Source: Candidatus Limnocylindrales bacterium
GTDB lineage: Bacteria > Moduliflexota > Moduliflexia > Moduliflexales > JAUQPW01
Assembly: GCA_035559535.1 (NCBI GenBank)
Contig: DATMBG010000022.1
Span: 256,568-320,567, forward strand
Length of the DNA stretch: 64,000 nt
Direction of reading: 5' to 3'
Shown here: one piece after another, positions 45,904 to 56,341 of the stretch
How positions within the stretch are numbered: the stretch's first letter is position 1
How the letters are laid out: each line of letters starts with the position of its first letter
Notes under the pieces: generated by a model
The model's input: the letters and a program-made list of their open reading frames with translations, nothing else
What the model was told of the DNA's origin: nothing
Databases searched by the model: none
Made by a program: the position numbers and the translations under genes

Positions 45904-46836
45904 ATGAGGAAGGAGAACATGACCTTGGCCTTGCCGCTTGTCATAAGGGAATCTCAAGGTCTTTATCGTTCCAAGATCCCCATTGGCTGTACAAGAACCT
46001 GCTTGTGCCCATCCAATCATATAAACTGCCTGACGGCAAAGGAGTGGATCAAATGCCAGCTTGGGATTTGGCAATTCTTTTATGAGGGTGGGGATATTCG
46101 TGACAAAAACGTCCATCCGGCGACATTCCCGATTGCCCTTTCCAAAAGGGTCATCGGTCTCTTTACACACGAAGGTGAACTTGTCCTCGACCCATTCGTA
46201 GGAAGTGGTACGACCCTTGTGACGGCAAGAGATTTGAATCGAAATGCCATAGGCTTTGACCTCCAAGAAAAGTATATTAATCTTTGCATTGAACGCCTGG
46301 CTTCTGGTAATTTGTTCAACCGTGCTCAACAATTAGCCGTTCAAGATGATGCAAGAAACATCCCGGCCTACCTGAACCCCGAAACGGTCAGTCTGATTTG
46401 GACCTCTCCACCTTATGCTAATCTATTAAATAGAAAACGCCTCAATAAATCCAGACGTGACCGACGCAATGAACAGTTTGGAAGGATCGAACAGTACTCA
46501 CAAGATCCGCGGGACTTAGGCACCATGCCCCTTGAAGAGTATACGAAAGCTATGGGGGACATTTTCGAAGCCTTGCTGCCTTTGCTCAGACCCAAGGCGC
46601 ATTGCGTTATCAACGTCCCGGACATGTGGTGGGAAGATCGGCGTATCACCCTTCACGTTGCTCTCATTGAAGAGTTACGAAAGCGAGGGTATGAACTCAG
46701 GAATATCATCATTTGGGATAAAACGAATATTGTGAACAAGATAGGTATATTCGGTTGGCCGAGCAATTATATTACTATGGGGACAACGTTTGAGTATCTC
46801 TTGGATTTCTGGAGGCCACCGAATGGAACTCTATAA
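45904..46836 (+). CDS. Orphan DNA methyltransferase (N4-C/N6-A family, SPPY catalytic motif)
   Basis: HPATFP, motif I LDPFVGSGTT, then motif IV WTSPPY; N-terminal CTRTCLCPSNHINC. The true start may be downstream of 45904. Confidence 0.88.
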   Translation: MRKENMTLALPLVIRESQGLYRSKIPIGCTRTCLCPSNHINCLTAKEWIKCQLGIWQFFYEGGDIRDKNVHPATFPIALSKRVIGLFTHEGELVLDPFVGSGTTLVTARDLNRNAIGFDLQEKYINLCIERLASGNLFNRAQQLAVQDDARNIPAYLNPETVSLIWTSPPYANLLNRKRLNKSRRDRRNEQFGRIEQYSQDPRDLGTMPLEEYTKAMGDIFEALLPLLRPKAHCVINVPDMWWEDRRITLHVALIEELRKRGYELRNIIIWDKTNIVNKIGIFGWPSNYITMGTTFEYLLDFWRPPNGTL

Positions 46837-47630: not shown

Positions 47631-49307
47631 ATGTACGACCTCATCAAGTTAAATGAACTTAAAAAAGCTAAAGAAACCTGGGAAACTAACCTATCCAAGA
47701 AACTCGCACAGACGCCTGAAAGGAAAAAAGAATTTAAGACTCCCTCCGGGATTGAAATGAAGCGGGTTTTTACCCCGGAAGATATCCAGGATCTGGACTA
47801 TCTGGAAAATCTAAACTTCCCCGGCAGTTACCCTTTTACCCGAGGCGTTCAGCCGACCATGTACCGGGGACGGCTCTGGACCATGCGGCAATATGCCGGA
47901 TTTGCCACGGCAGAGGAGTCCAATAAACGTTACCGGTATCTGCTGGAACAGGGCCAGACCGGATTAAGTATCGCTTTCGATCTTCCCACCCAGATGGGAT
48001 ATGATTCTGATGATCCTCGGGCTTTTGGAGAAGTGGGAAAAGTCGGGGTAGCTATTGATTCTCTGGAAGATATGGAAATTTTATTGAAGGGAATCCCTTT
48101 AGATAAGGTCAGCACTTCTATGACCATCAACTCCACAGCAGCTATTCTTTTAGCTATGTATATCGCCGTAGCAGAAAAGCAGGGGGTTCCCTCGGAAAAA
48201 CTGCGGGGAACGATTCAGAACGATTTACTGAAAGAATATATTGCCCGAGGTACCTATATTTACCCCCCGGAACCCTCCATGCGGATTATTACCGACATCT
48301 TTGCCTTTGCCAAAGACCACGTTCCCAATTGGAACACCATCAGCATCAGCGGGTACCATATTCGGGAAGCCGGAGCCACGGCAGTTCAAGAAGTTGCTTT
48401 TACCTTAGCCAACGGAATTGCTTACGTAGAAGCAGCTCTCAAAGCGGGTCTGGCGGTAGATGATTTTGCTCCTCAACTCTCATTTTTCTTTAATGTCCAC
48501 AATAACTTCCTGGAAGAAGTAGCCAAGTTTCGGGCAGCTCGAAGGATGTGGGCCAGGATTATGAAAGAGCGTTTCAAAGCCCAAGATCCGAGGTCCATGA
48601 TGCTACGATTCCATGCCCAAACGGCCGGAAGTTCTCTGACGGCGCAGCAGCCAGATAATAATGTAGTACGGGTAGCTTTACAGGCCCTGGCAGCTGTTTT
48701 CGGTGGTGCCCAATCCCTCCATACCAATTCCCGAGATGAAGCTTTGGCCCTTCCCACCGAAGACTCTGTACGTATCGCCCTGAGAACGCAACAAATCATT
48801 GCTTATGAAACAGGCGTGGCGGATACCGTTGATCCCCTGGCCGGTTCTTACACCATAGAAGCCCTTACCTGTGAAATTGAAACACGGGCCTGGGCCTACC
48901 TTCATAAAATCGATGAGCTGGGAGGTATGATCCGGGCCATCGAATCCGGATATGTCCAGAGGGAAATCCAGGAAAGTGCCTACCAGTACCAAAAAAGTAT
49001 TGAAAATAAAGAACAAATTATCGTAGGGGTTAATGAGTTTGTCATGGAAGAACGGATACCCTTTGAGATTCTCAAACTCGATCCGGAGTTGGAAAAAGCC
49101 CAGGTGCGGCGGGTTCAAGAGCTCCGGAAGCGTCGAGATAATGAAGCGGTTAAATCGGCTCTAACCCGTTTAAAACAGGTCGCCCAGGGAACCGATAACC
49201 TCATGCCTGCAATCCTGGATGCGGTTAAATGCTATACCACCCTGGGAGAGATCTCCCATGCTTTACGGGAAGTGTTTGGAGAGTATCACGAATCGATTGT
49301 ATTTTAA
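47631..49307 (+). CDS. Methylmalonyl-CoA mutase, substrate-binding (large) subunit
   Basis: PFTRG...[12 protein letters not shown] (Tyr specificity residue), [20 protein letters not shown]; no DxHxxG B12-binding domain. Alternative start at 47622. Confidence 0.92.
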
Positions 49308-49382
49308 GGGGAATATTGTCTATGGCCCGAGGTCCAGGGTTGATAGGACCTCCCATGGACCACGGATCATAGACCACAGACC

Positions 49383-50324
49383 ATTAAACAGAGTTTTACC
49401 CTTCGCGTTCTCGATTCAGATGCCCATCAACGGTTGGATACCTTCCTTGCCCACCGGTCCGATGTATCTTTATCCCGATCCCAGGCTGCAAAACTTATTA
49501 AACAGGAGCGGGTTCGGGTGAACGGCCGTCCGGTAAAGCCCAGTTACGAAGTGCAGGTAGGAGATTGGATTGAGGTAGATCTGCCGGAACCGGAACCGCT
49601 GGAACTCGTTCCCGAAGAAATCCCTTTAGATATTCTCTATGAAGATGAAGCCCTTATCGTTTTGAACAAACCGGCGGGCCTGGTGGTGCATCCGGCACCT
49701 GGACACCCAAAAGGAACCCTTGTCCATGCCTTACTGGCCCATTGCCAGAATCTTTCGGGGATCGGAGGGGTCCAAAGACCCGGTATTGTCCATCGACTGG
49801 ATCGAGATACTTCCGGAGTTATGCTGATAGCTAAAACTGATCAGGCCCATCAAAGCCTTTCTACCCAACTGAAGAATCGGGAGATCATCAAGGAATATCT
49901 GGCCGTTGTTCATGGAATTTTTAAAGATAAAAAAGGGACTCTTTCCACAGTGATCGGACGGCATACCCATGATCGTAAGAAAATGTCCGTCTTTACCCGG
50001 CAGGGTCGTCCGGCCGTTACTTCCTATGAAGTGATTGAAGAATTTCCCAATTATTCGCTGGTGAAAATCCAGATCCACACCGGACGTACCCATCAAATCC
50101 GGGTCCATATGAAATATCTGAACCATCCTGTGGTAGGAGATCCTTTGTATGGAAGAGGTGCTAAAGATCAGGCCCTTATCCAGCGCCAGGCCCTCCATGC
50201 AAAACGTATCACTTTTAAACATCCGGTAACCGATCACCCCCTGGAGTTTGTGGCACCCCTACCGCAAGATATGAAAAATCTCCTTGAAAAGCTGCGAGCC
50301 TCATATGGAACTCAATCTCATTAA
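49383..50324 (+). CDS. rluD: RluD-type (RluA family) pseudouridine synthase with S4 domain; probable ATT start
   Basis: RLD..L....SRS, NKPAGLVVHP, HRLDRDTSG, TGRTHQIRVH, GDPLYG, RQALHA. The first canonical start (TTG 49434) falls inside RLD. Confidence 0.88.
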   Translation: MKQSFTLRVLDSDAHQRLDTFLAHRSDVSLSRSQAAKLIKQERVRVNGRPVKPSYEVQVGDWIEVDLPEPEPLELVPEEIPLDILYEDEALIVLNKPAGLVVHPAPGHPKGTLVHALLAHCQNLSGIGGVQRPGIVHRLDRDTSGVMLIAKTDQAHQSLSTQLKNREIIKEYLAVVHGIFKDKKGTLSTVIGRHTHDRKKMSVFTRQGRPAVTSYEVIEEFPNYSLVKIQIHTGRTHQIRVHMKYLNHPVVGDPLYGRGAKDQALIQRQALHAKRITFKHPVTDHPLEFVAPLPQDMKNLLEKLRASYGTQSH

Positions 50325-51630
50325 ATTTAGAGTCGGTGGAGTAGATTTTGGAATTTCCGTTGAGGAAGTCCAGGAGGTTATCTTCTATCCTAAACTGCGC
50401 CCATTACCAAGACCTCTACCCCCTGTTAAAGGGGTCTTCGAATTTCGCAATAGCCTGATCCTTCTCGTGGATCTACGGAAAAGATTGGGATTAGACTTTA
50501 CCGGTTTAACACGCAATACCCGGGTGATTGTAGCCAGATTAACCCAGGGACTTACGGGAATACTCGTGGAATCCCTCTCAGACTTCAAACGTATATCAAC
50601 AGAGTCTCTCCTCCCTCCCATTCCTTTGGCCGGATTCGGTGAAGACCTTTTGAAGGGAATTTATTTACAGGACGATGAGATGATCCTGCTTCCCGATTTT
50701 AATAAGATTCTATTTTCATTTATCCGGATCCAGTTGTCACCTCCCAGCCTCTTCGATCGGATAGCCCTTCGACATAAATTTAATAAAGGTCCGTTAACTT
50801 CGATCCTGGAAGAAATTTATACCCACCGGCAGATACCTTTTTCGACGACGCAGGCCAAGATACTTGCCAGATCCCTGGATCTGCCTGTTACCCAACTTTG
50901 TAAAATAACCTCCTTCTATCAGCGGTTTCATCCTATCTCCCCTCCCATTGAGTCCCTTGAAAGCCCGAGAATAGCCCAATTTGGGGATCAGGAATATCTC
51001 CAGCTTTCTCAACGTTTAGAAGAAGAGGAAAGAAAAGGAAAATTAAACCTTCTGGAGATAGAATCCCATAAGGAATCCCAAGATCTTATGGAGAGATGGG
51101 ATAGTTTCCTGGATAGAAATCCCTTTGACTTACCAAAGCCGGGCCCTAAGCAAGAAGCAAGGAACAAGACGCGAAGTTTTCTTGCTTCCCACCTCTTACC
51201 CCTGGTCACGGATTCTGGGAAGCAAATCCCTTTAACCCGATATAGAGATTTGGCCCGGAGACTGGATCTACCTACCCCCCAACTTGCGCATTTTATCTCC
51301 TTCTATAAAGGAAGTAGGGACAGGAAAATGAGCAAAGAGGATAAAGGGGAGGCCGCTGAGGTTAAATCGAAACCTGAGCTTTCTGTTAAGACCCTTTCGG
51401 AAGATCTTTTATCCGATAAGAACCAACCCTTACCGGAGGTACTTTATACCATTCTGGACCGACAAGGCTCTATCACCCCTGAAGATATTCGATTTATCAG
51501 TCGGGTTCGAAACCTTCCTGCCACGCAAGTCTACAAACTGGTTTCCTTTTTGTACGGGACGGAGGTCATTTTGAAAACAGAAAACTTGACAAGGAACCCG
51601 CAGGCAGTAGATAATGCCGGCTATAAATAA
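50305..51630 (+). CDS. CheW domain fused to three NuoE/HydC N-terminal-like helical repeats
   Basis: CheW: F.VG..DFGI.V..V.EVI....L..LP......GV..FR..LI.LVDLR..LG. Repeats end in LARSLDLPVTQLCKITSFY, LARRLDLPTPQLAHFISFY and ISRVRNLPATQVYKLVSFLY. Confidence 0.75.
   Translation: MELNLIKFRVGGVDFGISVEEVQEVIFYPKLRPLPRPLPPVKGVFEFRNSLILLVDLRKRLGLDFTGLTRNTRVIVARLTQGLTGILVESLSDFKRISTESLLPPIPLAGFGEDLLKGIYLQDDEMILLPDFNKILFSFIRIQLSPPSLFDRIALRHKFNKGPLTSILEEIYTHRQIPFSTTQAKILARSLDLPVTQLCKITSFYQRFHPISPPIESLESPRIAQFGDQEYLQLSQRLEEEERKGKLNLLEIESHKESQDLMERWDSFLDRNPFDLPKPGPKQEARNKTRSFLASHLLPLVTDSGKQIPLTRYRDLARRLDLPTPQLAHFISFYKGSRDRKMSKEDKGEAAEVKSKPELSVKTLSEDLLSDKNQPLPEVLYTILDRQGSITPEDIRFISRVRNLPATQVYKLVSFLYGTEVILKTENLTRNPQAVDNAGYK
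51586..51615 (+). promoter_or_regulatory. Possible internal sigma70 promoter at the end of the CheW fusion gene
   Basis: TTGACA-N18-GATAAT. Confidence 0.35.
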
Positions 51631-51665
51631 AAGGAAGATATTTCTCAAAAGTTCAGGTATTCTGA

Positions 51666-51866
51666 AAGCAGATTTTAAAATTTTGGGGTGAAAGACATCC
51701 GGGGAGCGAGGGAAATTTATTTCCGGTTCTGAATAAGATAAAAAAGGAATCAGGATCTCTGACCCTGGATGAGGCTAAACATGTGGCTTCTTTACAAGAT
51801 ATTTCCCATGTCCGGCTTCATAAGCTTCTCATAGTTTATAACGTAAGCGTCCCTATGGAACGTTGA
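51666..51866 (+). other. Open frame lacking a canonical start, encoding a fourth NuoE-N-like repeat (small CDS or pseudogene fragment)
   Basis: Translates as KQILKFWGERHPGSEGNLFPVLNKIKKESGSLTLDEAKHVASLQDISHVRLHKLLIVYNVSVPMER*; possible ATT start at 51672. Confidence 0.5.
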
Positions 51867-51895
51867 ACGTTAGATGAACGGTCATTACGCTGATT

Positions 51896-53680
51896 GTGAA
51901 AACCCTTACCGATAAATGTTGTTCAAAATGCTGGGACAGTGAACTCCAACGCTGTCCGGTTTTTACAGAGTGCCAACCTCAACGGCCTTTGTCCCACTGT
52001 CATACAGATGAGGCTTGTATTCGTCAGCGTGAGGAGGTTGTCACCCGACTCCGGTATGGAGCCGGAACTTTGATTCGGGTTGGAGTGGGCACTTGCGGTC
52101 AACAGGCAGGAGCTTCTTCGGTATTGGGAGCTATTTTCATAGAACTTCAACGACGAAATCTTTCCCATGTAAGCCTTTCGATAACGGGATGTCTGGGAAA
52201 TTGCTTCCAGGAAGTTGTGGTTTCCATTTCTCATCCTAAATACCCCACCGTTCTTTACACCCAGGTAAGTGAAGACAGGGTTCCGTATTTGATTTCCGAG
52301 CACATCGAAAAAAAGCGTATTGCCCGGGATTTGGTTTTAGCTCAACTGGAGGAGCCCGGGAAAAAGCCTTTAGGTCATGTTCCGGTCTTCAAAAATCTAG
52401 ATTTTTTCCGAAAGCAGATCTGGCGCGTCTCAGAACGTTGTGGGCATATGGATCCTGAAAGCCTGGACGACTTTTTGTTGCATGGAGGTTTTCTAGGTCT
52501 TTCTAAAACCATCAGAGAAGCTAAGCCGCCGGACCTGTTGAAATTGCTTAAAGAATCTAAGTTAAAGGGTCGTGGGGGGTCTGGAGAAGATGTGGCCGAT
52601 AAATGGGCCCGCGTGGCTGCTGCAGATGGAGAGGAAAAATATATCATCTGTAATGCCCATGAAGGAGATCCGGCCTCCTTTAAGGATCGAAGGTTACTGG
52701 AAAGTGATCCCCTGGGGGTCATAGAGGCTATGACCCTGGCCGGATATACCGTTGGAGCCGGAAAAGGGATTATCTTTCTGAACCCCAGGTATGAACTGGC
52801 TAAAAAACGCTTAGAACTGGCCCTTACGAAGGCACGGGCCTTTAATTACCTGGGGAAAGAAATTCTCGGCTCGAACTTTTCTTTTGATATCGAGATTCGA
52901 TTATCCCCAGGAGATTACCTGTCGGGAGAGGAAACTTCTTTGGTTACTTTCCTGGAAGGTAAAGCCGGGGTTAGAAGGGTCCCACCTCCCTTAACCAGCC
53001 AGGGTCTGTGGAATCTTCCTACGTTGATCCACAACGTAGAAACCCTCTTGAACATACCCCTTTTGGTGGTCAAAGGGGTTGATTGGTTTCGTGAACAGGG
53101 TACCGGGAACAGTCCGGGAACTCGATGCTGGACCTTATCCGGATGCCTTCAACGGAGGGGGATCGTAGAAGCTCCCGTCGGTATTTCGATTCAAGATCTG
53201 CTGGATATGGGGGGTGGGGCCCTGCCCGGGAAGAAAATTAAAGCCGTTCATGTGGGGGGATATGTGGGAGGTTATCTGCCGGAGAGTCTGTTTCAGACTC
53301 CTTTAGACGACGTGTCCCTGAAAAAATCAGGTATTAGCTTGGGAATCGGATCTCTGGTAGCCCTGGAGGAAACCACGTGTATGGTTCATAAGACCTGGCA
53401 AGACGCTCTTTTTACGGCTAAAGAAGAGTGTGGTCAGTGTACCCCGGGGCGGGAAGGCTCTTATCAGATATCTCGATTTCTGGAGAAAATCTGCCGGGGA
53501 AGAGGAGTCCGAAGTGATCTTCAGAAGCTCAAAGAAATTGCTTTCTATATGCGGGAGGCTTCCATGTGCGCTTATGGGCGCTTTTCCCCTGGACTTATAT
53601 CCAGCTCTCTGGAGTATTTCCACTCTGAGTATGAGGAGCATTTGCAGAAGCACTGCCCGGCAGGGGTTTGTTTTAAATAA
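51896..53680 (+). CDS. HydB/NuoF-like flavo-Fe-S subunit with degenerate NADH/FMN motifs
   Basis: Cys-rich N-terminus, thioredoxin-like GTCG..GCLGNC, KGRGGSG, CNAHEGDP, GEET, HNVET, CGQCTPGREG, EH...CPAGVC; no C-terminal 2x[4Fe-4S] domain. Confidence 0.85.
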   Translation: MKTLTDKCCSKCWDSELQRCPVFTECQPQRPLSHCHTDEACIRQREEVVTRLRYGAGTLIRVGVGTCGQQAGASSVLGAIFIELQRRNLSHVSLSITGCLGNCFQEVVVSISHPKYPTVLYTQVSEDRVPYLISEHIEKKRIARDLVLAQLEEPGKKPLGHVPVFKNLDFFRKQIWRVSERCGHMDPESLDDFLLHGGFLGLSKTIREAKPPDLLKLLKESKLKGRGGSGEDVADKWARVAAADGEEKYIICNAHEGDPASFKDRRLLESDPLGVIEAMTLAGYTVGAGKGIIFLNPRYELAKKRLELALTKARAFNYLGKEILGSNFSFDIEIRLSPGDYLSGEETSLVTFLEGKAGVRRVPPPLTSQGLWNLPTLIHNVETLLNIPLLVVKGVDWFREQGTGNSPGTRCWTLSGCLQRRGIVEAPVGISIQDLLDMGGGALPGKKIKAVHVGGYVGGYLPESLFQTPLDDVSLKKSGISLGIGSLVALEETTCMVHKTWQDALFTAKEECGQCTPGREGSYQISRFLEKICRGRGVRSDLQKLKEIAFYMREASMCAYGRFSPGLISSSLEYFHSEYEEHLQKHCPAGVCFK

Positions 53681-53689
53681 GAGGGGAAA

Positions 53690-55438
53690 ATGGATCTCAT
53701 TTCGATTCTTATCGATAACCGGGAAATTCAGATTCCCAGAGGAATTACGGTTTTAGAAGCGGCTGAATCCCTGGATATTAAAATTCCTGCACTATGTGTT
53801 TCCCCAGGCTGGGGAACGTCCGGTTTTTGTCGAAGTTGCGTGGTAGAGGTGGAAGGAGAGGATTACCTTCCCATAGCCTGTAGTCTGCCCGTTCAAGAAG
53901 GGATGGTTATCAAAACGAACTCCCCCAGAGTACTTGAATCCCGTAGATTAACGGTGGAATTGCTCCTTGCCCGCCATACCATGGATTGTGCTGTCTGTTA
54001 TCGAAATGGCAGGTGTTCTCTCCAAGATCTGGCAAATACCTACGGAATCAAGGAATCTCGATTTCTTACCCGAGAGAAACCCCTGGAAATCGATGATAAA
54101 AGTCCGGCCATTGTGCATAATCCCAACCGCTGTATTCTATGTGGTTTATGTGTTCAGGCCTGTTGCGATATCCAAACCGTTTCGGTGATTGATTTTGCCC
54201 ATCGAGGATTCGACCGGGTCGTGGAACCGGCCTTCGGACAGAGTCTTAATGAGGTGGAATGTGTTGCCTGTGGGCAGTGCATCCAGATCTGTCCGGTAGA
54301 ATCTTTCTATGAAAAAAGCGAGATCGATAAAGTAAGGGAAGCCCTGAGAGATCCCCATAAAGAGGTTGTGGCGTTTTTATCTCCTTCGGTGCCGCTCTCT
54401 ATCGGAGAAGAGTTTGGAATCGAGCCCGGAAAGTCTCTCTCCGGAGAAGTTATAAAGGCCTTGAAAATGGCCGGTTTTAAGAAGGTTTTTGATACCGCTC
54501 TGGGGGCCGATTTGGTAATCATGGAAGAAGCTTATGAGCTGTTAACCCGCTGGAATTCGGGTAAAAGTCTCCCTCTGATAACCTCCTGTAGTCCGGAGTG
54601 GGTCAAGTTCGTCGAGCACTTTTATCCGGAACTCTTACCTCATCTCTGTCCTACCAAATCCCCCCAGCAGATCATGGGAACTTTAGCCAAGACCTATTTT
54701 GCCGAGATTACGAAGATAGATTTGAAAAATCTCTTTACGGTTTCTATAACTCCTTGTACGGCTGAGAAGTTTGAGCGGACCCGACCGGAGTTAAATATCC
54801 AGGGTTTTCCGGATATAGATGCCTGTTTAACCGTCAAAGAGGTAGCCCGCCTCATTCGGATGACCCTGGGAAACCCTTTTCCCGATATCGGCTCCGAAGA
54901 GTTTGATCAACCCTTCGAGGTCTCATCGGGAGCAGGAGTTATATTCGGAGTGGCCGGGGGGGTCATGGAAGGTGTGCTGAGGACTCTGTACGAGCTTAAA
55001 GTCGGTAAGAAGTTGAAATCGGTAGCTTTTGAGAATATCCGGGAAGAAGTCAGAACTTCTTACAGCGGAGGCCTTCGGGAAGTGGAGGTTCAAGTAGGAA
55101 ATGAAACCCTTCAGGTTGCTGTGGTGCACGGATTAGGAAATGCCAGAAGGATATTGGAGGCCCTTCGATCCGGGAAGAGCCGGTATCATTTTATCGAAGT
55201 AAAAGGATGCCCCAACGGCTGTGCTCAGGGGGGCGGTCAACCTATTCCAGCTACCCTTGAAATTATTCAGGCTCGAGAACGCGGCCTTTATCTAGAGGAT
55301 GAAAAAAGAAAAATCCGTAAAGCCCATGAAAATCCCAGAATCAAAGAACTTTATGAAAAATTTTTTAAAAAACCCGCCAGTCCCACGGCCAGAAAATTCC
55401 TACACACGGAGTTTACGCCGCGGGAACACCATCTCTAA
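53690..55438 (+). CDS. [FeFe]-hydrogenase HydA-like subunit with atypical H-cluster motifs
   Basis: 2Fe-2S (PALC..CRSC..AC), His-ligated HxxxCxxCx5C, two CxxCxxCxxxC motifs, TSCSPEW / TPCTAEKFE / EVKGCPNGCAQGGGQP, small-subunit-like RKAHENP..LHT. Confidence 0.88.
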   Translation: MDLISILIDNREIQIPRGITVLEAAESLDIKIPALCVSPGWGTSGFCRSCVVEVEGEDYLPIACSLPVQEGMVIKTNSPRVLESRRLTVELLLARHTMDCAVCYRNGRCSLQDLANTYGIKESRFLTREKPLEIDDKSPAIVHNPNRCILCGLCVQACCDIQTVSVIDFAHRGFDRVVEPAFGQSLNEVECVACGQCIQICPVESFYEKSEIDKVREALRDPHKEVVAFLSPSVPLSIGEEFGIEPGKSLSGEVIKALKMAGFKKVFDTALGADLVIMEEAYELLTRWNSGKSLPLITSCSPEWVKFVEHFYPELLPHLCPTKSPQQIMGTLAKTYFAEITKIDLKNLFTVSITPCTAEKFERTRPELNIQGFPDIDACLTVKEVARLIRMTLGNPFPDIGSEEFDQPFEVSSGAGVIFGVAGGVMEGVLRTLYELKVGKKLKSVAFENIREEVRTSYSGGLREVEVQVGNETLQVAVVHGLGNARRILEALRSGKSRYHFIEVKGCPNGCAQGGGQPIPATLEIIQARERGLYLEDEKRKIRKAHENPRIKELYEKFFKKPASPTARKFLHTEFTPREHHL

Positions 55439-55636
55439 AAAATCTTTAAAAACCATCTTGTAAAAGTGTTGAAAGTTTATGTAATTTTATCTATCATTTC
55501 CTCCTCTTGTTCCTGAAATTTTACCTTCTGTCAAACGAGACGTTTAACCTACCTGGGTTAACTCAAGGACGGGTAAAAGAAGTTGAATACCTTTTAGCGG
55601 AGGAAATTTTCTTCTACCAATCTGGAGAATAGAAAC

Positions 55637-56341
55637 GTGCTGATAGTTGATAAAATTTGTGTTTTCTATGGAGATATACAAGCCCTATGGGAAGTTTCTT
55701 TTCAGGTGAGGGAAGGGGAAATTGTCGCTCTGGTAGGAGCCAACGGAGCCGGCAAAACAACCATTTTGAAGACCCTGGTAGGGATTCTGCGTGCGGCGTC
55801 TGGAACCATTACCTTTCAAGATGAAGATATCACCCACGAGTCGACCCATAAAATCGTCGAAAAAGGAATTTCTTTAATTCCTGAAGGGCGTAAACTTTTT
55901 CCTCAAATGTCGGTCTACGAGAATCTGGAAATGGGGGCTTATTCCCAACGGGCCAGGAGTAAAAAAAATGAGATGCTCGCCCGAGTTTTTAGATTGTTTC
56001 CCATTTTAGAAGAGCGAAAAACTCAGCCGGCTGGAACCCTTAGCGGAGGAGAGCAACAGATGGTTGCCATTGGCAGAGGGTTAATGGCACTTCCCAAACT
56101 TCTGCTTATCGATGAACCTTCTCTGGGATTAGCACCTAGGATTGTTAAAGAGCTTTTTCAAGTCATTCAGGAGATTAATCAACAAGGAGTGACTATTCTT
56201 TTGGTAGAGCAGAATGTCCATCAGGCTCTGAAAATCGCTCATCGAGCCTATATACTGGAAACCGGTCATATTACCCTGGAAGGGAAAGGAGCCGAGCTCC
56301 TTCAGAATGATTATATAAAGACGGCCTATTTAGGATTGTAA
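55637..56341 (+). CDS. livF: Branched-chain amino acid ABC transporter ATPase (LivF-like)
   Basis: GANGAGKTT, PEGR, LSGGEQQM, DEPSLGLAP, VEQN. Confidence 0.92.
   Translation: MLIVDKICVFYGDIQALWEVSFQVREGEIVALVGANGAGKTTILKTLVGILRAASGTITFQDEDITHESTHKIVEKGISLIPEGRKLFPQMSVYENLEMGAYSQRARSKKNEMLARVFRLFPILEERKTQPAGTLSGGEQQMVAIGRGLMALPKLLLIDEPSLGLAPRIVKELFQVIQEINQQGVTILLVEQNVHQALKIAHRAYILETGHITLEGKGAELLQNDYIKTAYLGL

Follow-up and report, generated by a model that had tools for sequence, protein, structure and literature searches.

A conserved HydABC-like gene trio of the Moduliflexota carries a CheW domain in its hydC position and may act as a chemosensory redox sensor

Trimeric HydABC-type [FeFe]-hydrogenases (group A3, called group A6 by NCBI), which depend on NADH (reduced nicotinamide adenine dinucleotide)/ferredoxin, are encoded in the order hydC-hydB-hydA and are represented by the structures from T. 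kivui (8a6t), A. woodii (7q4v) and T. maritima (7p5h). According to passages in Katsyv 2023 (PMC10021017) and in the Nfn-Bfu paper (PMC12018979), HydC and BfuC consist of an N-terminal four-helix bundle, fixed near the interface between HydB and HydA, plus a mobile thioredoxin-like domain, and ferredoxin docks on HydB's C-terminal domain. Here we analyze a locus in a 64,000-nucleotide stretch of the Candidatus Limnocylindrales bacterium assembly GCA_035559535.1 (contig DATMBG010000022.1, positions 256,568 to 320,567; hereafter the window), assigned by GTDB to the Moduliflexota, in which three co-oriented genes follow the same order. The arrangement had been noticed in a first-pass annotation made from the sequence without database searches, and open reading frames (ORFs) together with hidden Markov model (HMM) scans of all three proteins confirm it. 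The trio is real, conserved and phylum specific, and the sequence data support viewing it as a putatively neofunctionalized, non-catalytic HydABC derivative, the small subunit of which would now be a CheW-borne tether.

Several other described systems resemble parts of this unit. CheV is a CheW domain with a receiver domain, and the fusion protein described here, which has a full CheW domain and fold, likewise is a CheW with an extra module that may modulate coupling; this module, however, consists of three to four NuoE-type helical bundles without a receiver, and the gene lies outside any che cluster. Aer and the regulatory [NiFe]-hydrogenases (HupUV/HoxBC) embody the same concept, that of a redox cofactor protein through which a signaling kinase learns of metabolic or gas status. 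Aer, however, is a receptor with a flavin adenine dinucleotide-binding PAS domain and its own kinase-control module, while HupUV is a true hydrogenase that signals to a histidine kinase, and neither is a CheW fusion or an iron-sulfur (Fe-S) pseudo-enzyme. A further likeness is offered by eukaryotic Nar1/NARFL, HydA homologues that carry Fe-S clusters and have neither the [2Fe] subcluster nor maturases; these differ in being monomeric, in serving cytosolic Fe-S assembly and in having no HydB-like partner and no CheW. The sensory group C [FeFe]-hydrogenases (HydS of T. maritima and others) are likewise homologues proposed to sense, and they too are changed at positions M353 and M497 (PMC10055695). 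That paper and PMC8924675 describe a HydS that keeps the ligating Cys and the residues hydrogen-bonding the cofactor, incorporates [2Fe] and has a PAS domain. In contrast, the trio has lost the pocket Lys of its L2 motif, yielded no PAS domain in a Pfam scan at E <= 0.1, descends from trimeric group A rather than group C, and would send its output through CheW.

The first-pass annotation knew of no described system with such a layout. In full-text literature searches, neither a CheW/NuoE-type fusion nor the three-gene unit was found described beyond a passing remark in the KSB3 genome paper (Sekiguchi et al. 2015). There, some hydrogenase genes are said to adjoin signal-transduction genes and perhaps to act in signaling or chemotaxis, with reference to a Fig. 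S11 that may show the trio locus.

A CheW domain and helical repeats in the hydC position

The first gene of the trio (50305..51630, forward strand, as are all features of the trio) encodes a 441-residue protein composed of a CheW domain followed by three helical repeats resembling the N-terminal part of HydC/NuoE. The CheW domain (residues 6-136; 50320..50712) matches PF01584 with an E-value of 7.5e-25 and 87.6 bits, over profile positions 3-134 of 138, and also matches E. coli CheW 8c5v_E (E 6.8e-12) and 2qdl_A (E 6.9e-13). In an AF2 model of the whole fusion protein, this domain is predicted with a local confidence score (pLDDT) of 82-89, and in an all-against-all structure search its top match is TtCheW (Z 19.1, root-mean-square deviation [rmsd] of 2.0 A over 139 residues). 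It retains the V-D-L-R-x-R-x-G stretch, which aligns with that of E. coli CheW. The score against the NCBIfam CheW equivalog (41.1) falls below the cut-off of 260. The hydC slot encodes a bona fide CheW domain.

As for the remainder of the protein, three repeats can be delineated. R1 (residues 162-210; 50788..50934), for which helices are modeled at residues 149-203, is the best conserved across the two families into which the unit falls, f1 and the sister family f2. It is separated from R2 (residues 292-337; 51178..51315), defined by alignments and the model, by a conserved G-D-x-x-Y-L-x-L-S motif (50983..51009), of which G227, D228 and Y231 are invariant in 26 sequences. R3 (residues 373-421; 51421..51567) bears the clearest likeness to the NuoE N-terminal four-helix bundle. 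PF01257 (2Fe-2S_thioredx) matches residues 372-415 with 26.2 bits against a cut-off of 24.8, covering only profile positions 11-54, that is, the N-terminal helices, and NCBIfam models give weak matches to the N-terminal parts of HoxE on residues 371-416 and, at R1, of FdsG on residues 151-209. In the structure search (VIA) with the model of the whole protein, residues 360-422, which include R3, matched FdsG (6vw8_A) with Z 7.4 and an rmsd of 1.8 A over 59 residues, followed by E. coli NuoE (7awt_E, Z 6.2), residues 3-64 of NfnC (9n5v_C, Z 6.0), Aquifex NuoE (6hl2_A, Z 6.0) and three more NuoE-type chains. A profile built from 28 repeat copies finds FdsG as well, at its N-terminal helices (6vw7_A, E 0.0057), and gives a weak match to HydC of T. 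maritima (E 0.8). Softer support comes from a Foldseek search of the Protein Data Bank with an AF2 model of the repeats only, in which FdsG is matched locally with a probability of 0.99 and nothing at E <= 0.001.

In contrast to HydC, then, the bundle is multiplied three- to fourfold and fused to CheW, and the thioredoxin-like domain with its four Cys for a [2Fe-2S] cluster was not found in the fusion protein, in which the PF01257 match ends at profile position 54. Since the protein contains a single Cys (residue 199), it has no 2Fe-2S motif or site. The earlier description of a CheW fused to HydC/NuoE N-terminal-like repeats without a 2Fe-2S Cys motif therefore stands.

The 266-bp gap (51631-51895) between the CheW-fusion and HydB-like genes is more than an intergenic spacer: three-frame translations and an alignment to the intact R4 of a related contig locus (L018) reveal the remnant of a pseudogenized fourth repeat (51631..51866). 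In the window, this repeat is disabled by three lesions, a TAA (51628-51630), the deletion of 1 nt and a TGA (51663-51665), and the family profile still matches the remnant, internal TGA included, with an E-value of 1.9e-6. Three of the six close homologues of the fusion protein are about 80 residues longer and possess the fourth repeat, and among 26 aligned sequences, R4 occurs in all 19 f2-type proteins and in three of the seven f1-type proteins. The truncation is real, because a contig from another study shows 0 differences over 51619-51786 and an independent, 93%-identical protein likewise ends at residue 441. Reads from X7 and X8, which cover only small parts of the region at 90-99% likeness, are uninformative on the lesions. 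The window copy has thus lost its fourth repeat and is otherwise intact and constrained.

Cofactor sites of the HydB-like and HydA-like proteins

The second gene (51896..53680) encodes a 594-residue HydB/NuoF-like protein with Complex1_51K (PF01512, E 2e-31) and NADH_4Fe-4S (PF10589, E 1.6e-21) domains, which scores 332.9 against TIGR01959, below the cut-off of 558.65, and which aligns over residues 58-592 with HydB, NfnB and HoxF. We compared it with 65 of 119 database hits and seven rows from related loci; 34 of the database rows are altered in the same manner and 31 are canonical, the latter with flavin mononucleotide (FMN) and NADH motifs nearly unchanged. The FMN loop (52568-52606) reads GRGGSGEDVADKW in place of the RGRGG[AG]GFPTGxKW of the 31 canonical rows and of 7t2r_B, and the NADE box (52649-52690) reads CNAHEGDPAS in place of their CNADEGDPGA. 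At the N3 site (53429-53458), with the sequence CGQCTPGREG, the third Cys has become Gly, as in every altered row covering the site except P0156, which has Asp; f2-type proteins have an extra Cys two residues past the fourth N3 ligand, which the window protein does not. The Cys of the CGEET box is missing in altered rows. Setting aside fragments that lack the region, all altered rows (34 from the database and seven from loci) display NAHEG and, P0156 apart, CxxCxxG, and possess neither GFPTG nor the C-terminal tail. The reported alteration of the NADH and FMN motifs is therefore upheld against both solved and database HydB proteins, and it extends to the NADH-site Cys and the third N3 Cys.

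The two ends of the HydB-like protein also depart from HydB. After the last shared motif, there are 0 residues, against 58-61 in most canonical HydB proteins, where this tail forms the 2x[4Fe-4S] domain. At the other end, full-length altered members carry a Cys-rich prefix (residues 8-41; 51917..52018) with seven Cys and one His conserved in both families, which is absent from the 31 canonical rows and scores 32.7 bits against NF040902 (NuoF_pre_CCxxC), below the cut-off of 45. From its sequence, this prefix is a possible extra metal site. The first-pass statement that both of the hyd-like genes are full length consequently holds for the HydA-like protein, which aligns end to end with HydA1, and fails for the HydB-like protein, in which the C-terminal domain is missing and a CCxxC prefix has been added.

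The third gene (53690..55438) encodes a 582-residue HydA-like protein with Fe_hyd_lg_C (PF02906, E 3.2e-79), Fe_hyd_SSU (PF02256, E 4.2e-19), Fer2_4, NADH-G_4Fe-4S_3 and Fer4 domains, closest to T. kivui HydA1 (8a6t_A, E 1.7e-163) and also similar to A. woodii HydA1 (7q4v_A). Its score against TIGR02512 (432.6) is above the cut-off of 405.95, and that against NF040763 (FeFe_hydrog_A6; 706.7) is below the cut-off of 765. As claimed at first pass, the accessory Fe-S ligands are intact: all Cys and His ligands of four clusters, namely a 2Fe-2S (53795-53881), a His-ligated 4Fe-4S (53975-54016) and two 4Fe-4S clusters (54131-54292), are retained, along with three Cys of the [4Fe-4S]H site.

The H-cluster pocket, by contrast, is remodeled. 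In an alignment with the 120 best database hits and seven orthologues from related genomes, the altered pattern occurs in 33 of the 120 hits in addition to the window and the seven loci, and the other 87 hits, many of them named "NADH-dependent [FeFe] hydrogenase, group A6," are canonical. The L2 motif (54749-54775) is T-P-C-T/S-A-E-K in all 40 altered members, with Met replaced by Thr and the pocket Lys by Glu, against M-P-C-x-x-K-K in the 87 canonical rows; the L3 motif (55196-55243) is K-G-C-P, with Lys-Gly for Met-Ala/Cys, in all 40 members against M-[ACTSG]-C-P; and the APAVR stretch is changed as well. L1 (54581-54601) is a different matter. The window has TSCSPEW, A. woodii HydA1 has TSCSPGW and all 87 canonical rows have TSC[S/C/R]P, nearly all of them TSCSPGW; since TSCSP is found in canonical and active relatives, L1 of the window is no sign of inactivation. 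The diiron-pocket changes described at first pass are thus borne out for L2 and L3 and not for L1, which is of the type normal in the nearest active hydrogenases. In the sister family, both Cys of L1 are lost in all 32 members (SSSSPAW or SSASPAW). The altered HydA proteins form one clade with a support of 1.0 and a long stem (0.62, where the median branch is 0.083), in a tree of top hits with an arbitrary root, and its two sub-clades match the two L1 types.

The altered residues of the HydB-like and HydA-like proteins are fixed character states rather than scattered damage. The alignments indicate that the accessory Fe-S chain has been kept, while the residues predicted to hold [2Fe], those for FMN and the ferredoxin-docking domain have been lost, changes that are fixed and selected.

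Conservation and genomic context of the trio

Our phylum sample comprised nine genomes, including that of the window (G000; 95.8% complete, 58 contigs). A profile search finds the repeat region in all nine, and the order of CheW fusion, HydB-like and HydA-like genes is confirmed in all nine as well, with the three ORFs intact, which answers the first-pass question of whether the fusion stays beside altered hydB and hydA. A search for relatives with the repeat region of the window alone had missed G002, which was found by the profile search and then confirmed by synteny. Identities to the window descend to 32-38% for the CheW fusion, 45-48% for the HydB-like and 51-54% for the HydA-like protein. 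Further afield, a word search among 5.8 billion proteins yields six full-length homologues of the CheW fusion, and the repeat-region profile retrieves 32 representatives among 1.84 billion, all of a single architecture; in those that are full length, the match starts at about residue 141, behind a CheW-sized N terminus. Named cluster members belong to Ca. Moduliflexus flocculans, Ca. Vecturithrix and "candidate division KSB3." A scan of metagenome contigs found no relative and one unrelated CheW-level match, while a scan of genome contigs yielded L018 as the one true relative, besides five matches to CheW only. The trio is thus universal in the phylum sample and restricted to the phylum. Among these five is a 499-residue protein with three tandem CheW domains, encoded on contig L019 of a Caldatribacterium metagenome-assembled genome (9834..11333, forward strand), which has no relation to the repeat region.

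Purifying selection acts on all three genes. For the single pair formed by the window and L018, the ratio of nonsynonymous to synonymous substitution rates (dN/dS) is 0.173 for the CheW fusion (0.085 for the CheW domain, 0.214 for the repeats), 0.116 for the HydB-like and 0.076 for the HydA-like gene, and 0.035 and 0.077 for two neighboring housekeeping genes.

The trio is universal, whereas true hydrogenases and maturases come and go. In G000, the best matches to HydE, HydF and HydG reach 47.5, 103.9 and 24.7 bits, where the cut-offs are 254.6, 325.55 and 312.15, so that the maturases are likely absent from this genome, given its completeness and 58 contigs, and the HydA-like gene is its only Fe_hyd_lg_C gene. 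G001 and G008 also have the altered copy only and no HydG match, and G008 has no HydF match either (of these two, the search for HydF covered G008). G006 and G007 each have two extra Fe_hyd_lg_C copies with canonical L1-L3 beside the altered copy (L041 and L042 in G007), and this coexistence with canonical paralogues argues that the altered copy has a separate, retained function. Public annotation calls the trio genes "iron-only hydrogenase group A" and "NADH-quinone oxidoreductase subunit F," and for two genomes of the phylum, in which no other [FeFe]-hydrogenase-like genes occur, H2 metabolism would be wrongly inferred from them.

With respect to chemosensory partners, the genomes are rich in cheA, alongside which the fusion was expected at first pass to occur. 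G000 contains 17 matches to the CheW domain, and six of these fall in long frames of CheA size (645-1013 aa), of which the one on contig C51 is confirmed as CheA by HMM. This orphan CheA (G000:C51, L039, 6205..9222, forward strand; 1005 aa), which has no che genes beside it, comprises an NMT1/THI5-like (solute-binding-type) N-terminal domain followed by Hpt, P2, dimerization, HATPase and CheW/P5 domains, and its orthologues of about 1000-1025 aa, with 58-96% identity, occur in nine of nine genomes. We considered it as a partner of the trio by co-occurrence, but it is as universal as the trio and cannot be singled out on these grounds.

Possible functions and flanking features

We favor the reading that the trio is a non-catalytic, hydrogenase-derived Fe-S sensor of redox state or of a gas, with CheW as its tether to chemosensory arrays, a reading to which we assign a probability of roughly 0.5. 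Redox or oxidant sensing with modulation of CheA is suggested by the CheW domain and the retained Fe-S wire, together with the loss of FMN, of the [2Fe] pocket and of the ferredoxin-docking domain. In such a sensor, one or more of the helical repeats would anchor HydB/HydA-like modules, and the CheW domain would insert in a CheA/receptor array or pair with the P5 domain of CheA. The redox state of the Fe-S chain, which might be set by a low-potential electron pool or by O2, nitric oxide or another oxidant at the opened H-cluster site, would then alter kinase output, and the outcome could be energy, redox or oxygen taxis in strictly fermentative, gliding filaments. Sensing without a classical methyl-accepting chemotaxis protein is purely conjectural. 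What was observed at first pass is confirmed, with the corrections detailed above, its interpretation is partly supported and the putative mechanism is plausible and unrefuted. Tentatively, and with more doubt, one may go further and picture an array input that bypasses transmembrane receptors, in which up to four copies of a pseudo-hydrogenase, reduced to its Fe-S wire and an opened former H-cluster site, would sit on the CheW adaptor via the multiplied HydC bundles and report low-potential redox or O2/H2-linked oxidation directly to CheA; the unit would then be the first enzyme complex converted whole to a CheW-borne sensor and a signature trait of KSB3/Moduliflexota.

If a sensor it is, an entire metabolic complex, HydABC, would have been turned into a signaling device, through the fixed loss of its catalytic cofactors and the joining of its small subunit to the universal chemotaxis adaptor. 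Chemosensory arrays would have a new input, via CheW instead of a receptor, and there would be a natural, constrained bacterial H-domain without a [2Fe] site. Members of the phylum cause filamentous bulking in anaerobic wastewater reactors, as reported in PMC4312070, which lends some practical interest to how they navigate.

Several results weigh against a chemosensory pseudo-hydrogenase. Neither in the window nor at the related loci does a che gene adjoin the trio. The NuoE N-terminal fold expected of the repeats at first pass was recovered in the model of R3; R1 and R2 matched only generic three-helix folds, so that their reading as NuoE-type bundles draws on the shared sequence pattern, and the repeat models are of modest confidence, with a pLDDT of 57-78 in the whole-protein AF2 model (64 overall) and a mean of 53 in the repeats-only model. 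R4, universal in the f2-type proteins, has been lost in the window, so that the copy there may function in another way or less efficiently. The active enzyme CpII, according to PMC10055695, also has Thr at M353. Moreover, the expectation that the unit would not co-occur with hydEFG holds in G000 and not throughout, as maturases occur in three of the nine genomes (HydF in G002 and G003, HydG in G006), where an H-cluster is possible. Finally, G004 and G007, the latter a single 7.3-Mb contig, have further Fe_hyd_lg_C genes and no HydF or HydG match (canonical L1-L3 were read for the two G007 copies, and L045, the one copy retrieved from G004, did not pass the motif filter), so that maturase matches are an imperfect predictor in this phylum; in these genomes either maturases were missed or the enzymes are matured differently. 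A complex prediction with the HydB-like protein (45-row alignment) and fusion residues 140-441 (26-row alignment), run without controls, gave ipSAE values of 0.12 and 0.06 against a mark of 0.32 and speaks neither for nor against binding.

Four other explanations have to be set against the sensor. The HydA/HydB-like pair could still be an enzyme or electron-transfer module with new chemistry, which the CheW-repeat protein would only scaffold or localize, for instance at the pole or an array, without signaling. The intact and constrained Fe-S ligands of five HydA-like clusters fit this, as do the persistence of the GEET part of the NADH site and of the KDR box in the HydB-like protein and the invariance of new residues (His in NAHEG, Lys in L3, Glu in L2), which suggest a new site and not plain loss. 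However, with the FMN loop, the third Cys of N3 and the domain for ferredoxin docking all lost, no recognizable substrate entry or exit is left, and we know of no role for a CheW domain outside CheA-type pathways; we therefore hold this explanation to be unlikely, if worth keeping in view. Co-option of the CheW fold as a structural part that replaces HydC's thioredoxin-like domain, in a unit unrelated to chemotaxis, would accord with the lack of adjacent che genes and with an operon-like string of genes in which the fusion gene follows rluD at each of the loci examined. It appears quite unlikely for a domain that is full length and high scoring (87.6 bits, Z 19.1), has kept V-D-L-R-x-R-x-G, shows a dN/dS of 0.085 and sits at the opposite end of the protein from the position of the HydC thioredoxin domain.

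The trio might also be a slow, sensory-type true hydrogenase, an H2 sensor like HydS, with an unusual H-cluster matured by HydEFG where present or by another route. Three Cys of [4Fe-4S]H are kept, L1 has the TSCSP of the active A. woodii HydA1, maturases are present in G002, G003 and G006, and passages of PMC10055695 record changes at M353 and M497 in HydS and Thr at M353 in CpII. The same source, however, describes sensory hydrogenases as conserving the ligating Cys and the residues hydrogen-bonding the [2Fe] cofactor, while the trio has Lys-to-Glu in L2 and Met-to-Lys in L3 in 40 of 40 members and no L1 Cys in any of the 32 f2-type ones. The unit is, in addition, retained without any other HydA in G000, where HydE, HydF and HydG were not found, and likewise in G001 and G008, with the maturase results given above, and its score falls short of the NCBIfam A6 cut-off, all of which make an H2 sensor very improbable. 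Decay is the least credible explanation. A hydABC operon remnant without present function could account for the three lesions in the fourth repeat of the window and for the many cofactor motifs lost; it is contradicted by the conservation data, since three ORFs are intact in nine of nine genomes across deep divergence, dN/dS lies at 0.08-0.17 and the changed residues are invariant in the clade.

Returning to the locus itself, an RluD-like pseudouridine synthase gene (49434..50324, forward strand), named from motifs visible in its translation, lies directly 5' of the trio and occupies this position in every locus read (L033-L038); in the window, its 3' end shares 20 nt with the beginning of the CheW-fusion gene. 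The overlap and the conserved position suggest a conserved operon with translational coupling, to which the rluD-like gene possibly belongs together with the trio. A promoter and terminator scan of 49200-55700 gave counts no higher than in shuffles. A near-consensus sigma-70-like site (TTGACA, 18 nt, GATAAT; 11/12) lies at 51586..51615 on the forward strand, in the last codons of the CheW-fusion gene and upstream of the HydB-like gene; such sites are no more frequent in the region than in shuffled sequences. Farther upstream in the window, an ORF at 45904..46836 on the forward strand has a DNA methyltransferase-like translation and is overlapped by an antisense ORF of 164 aa.

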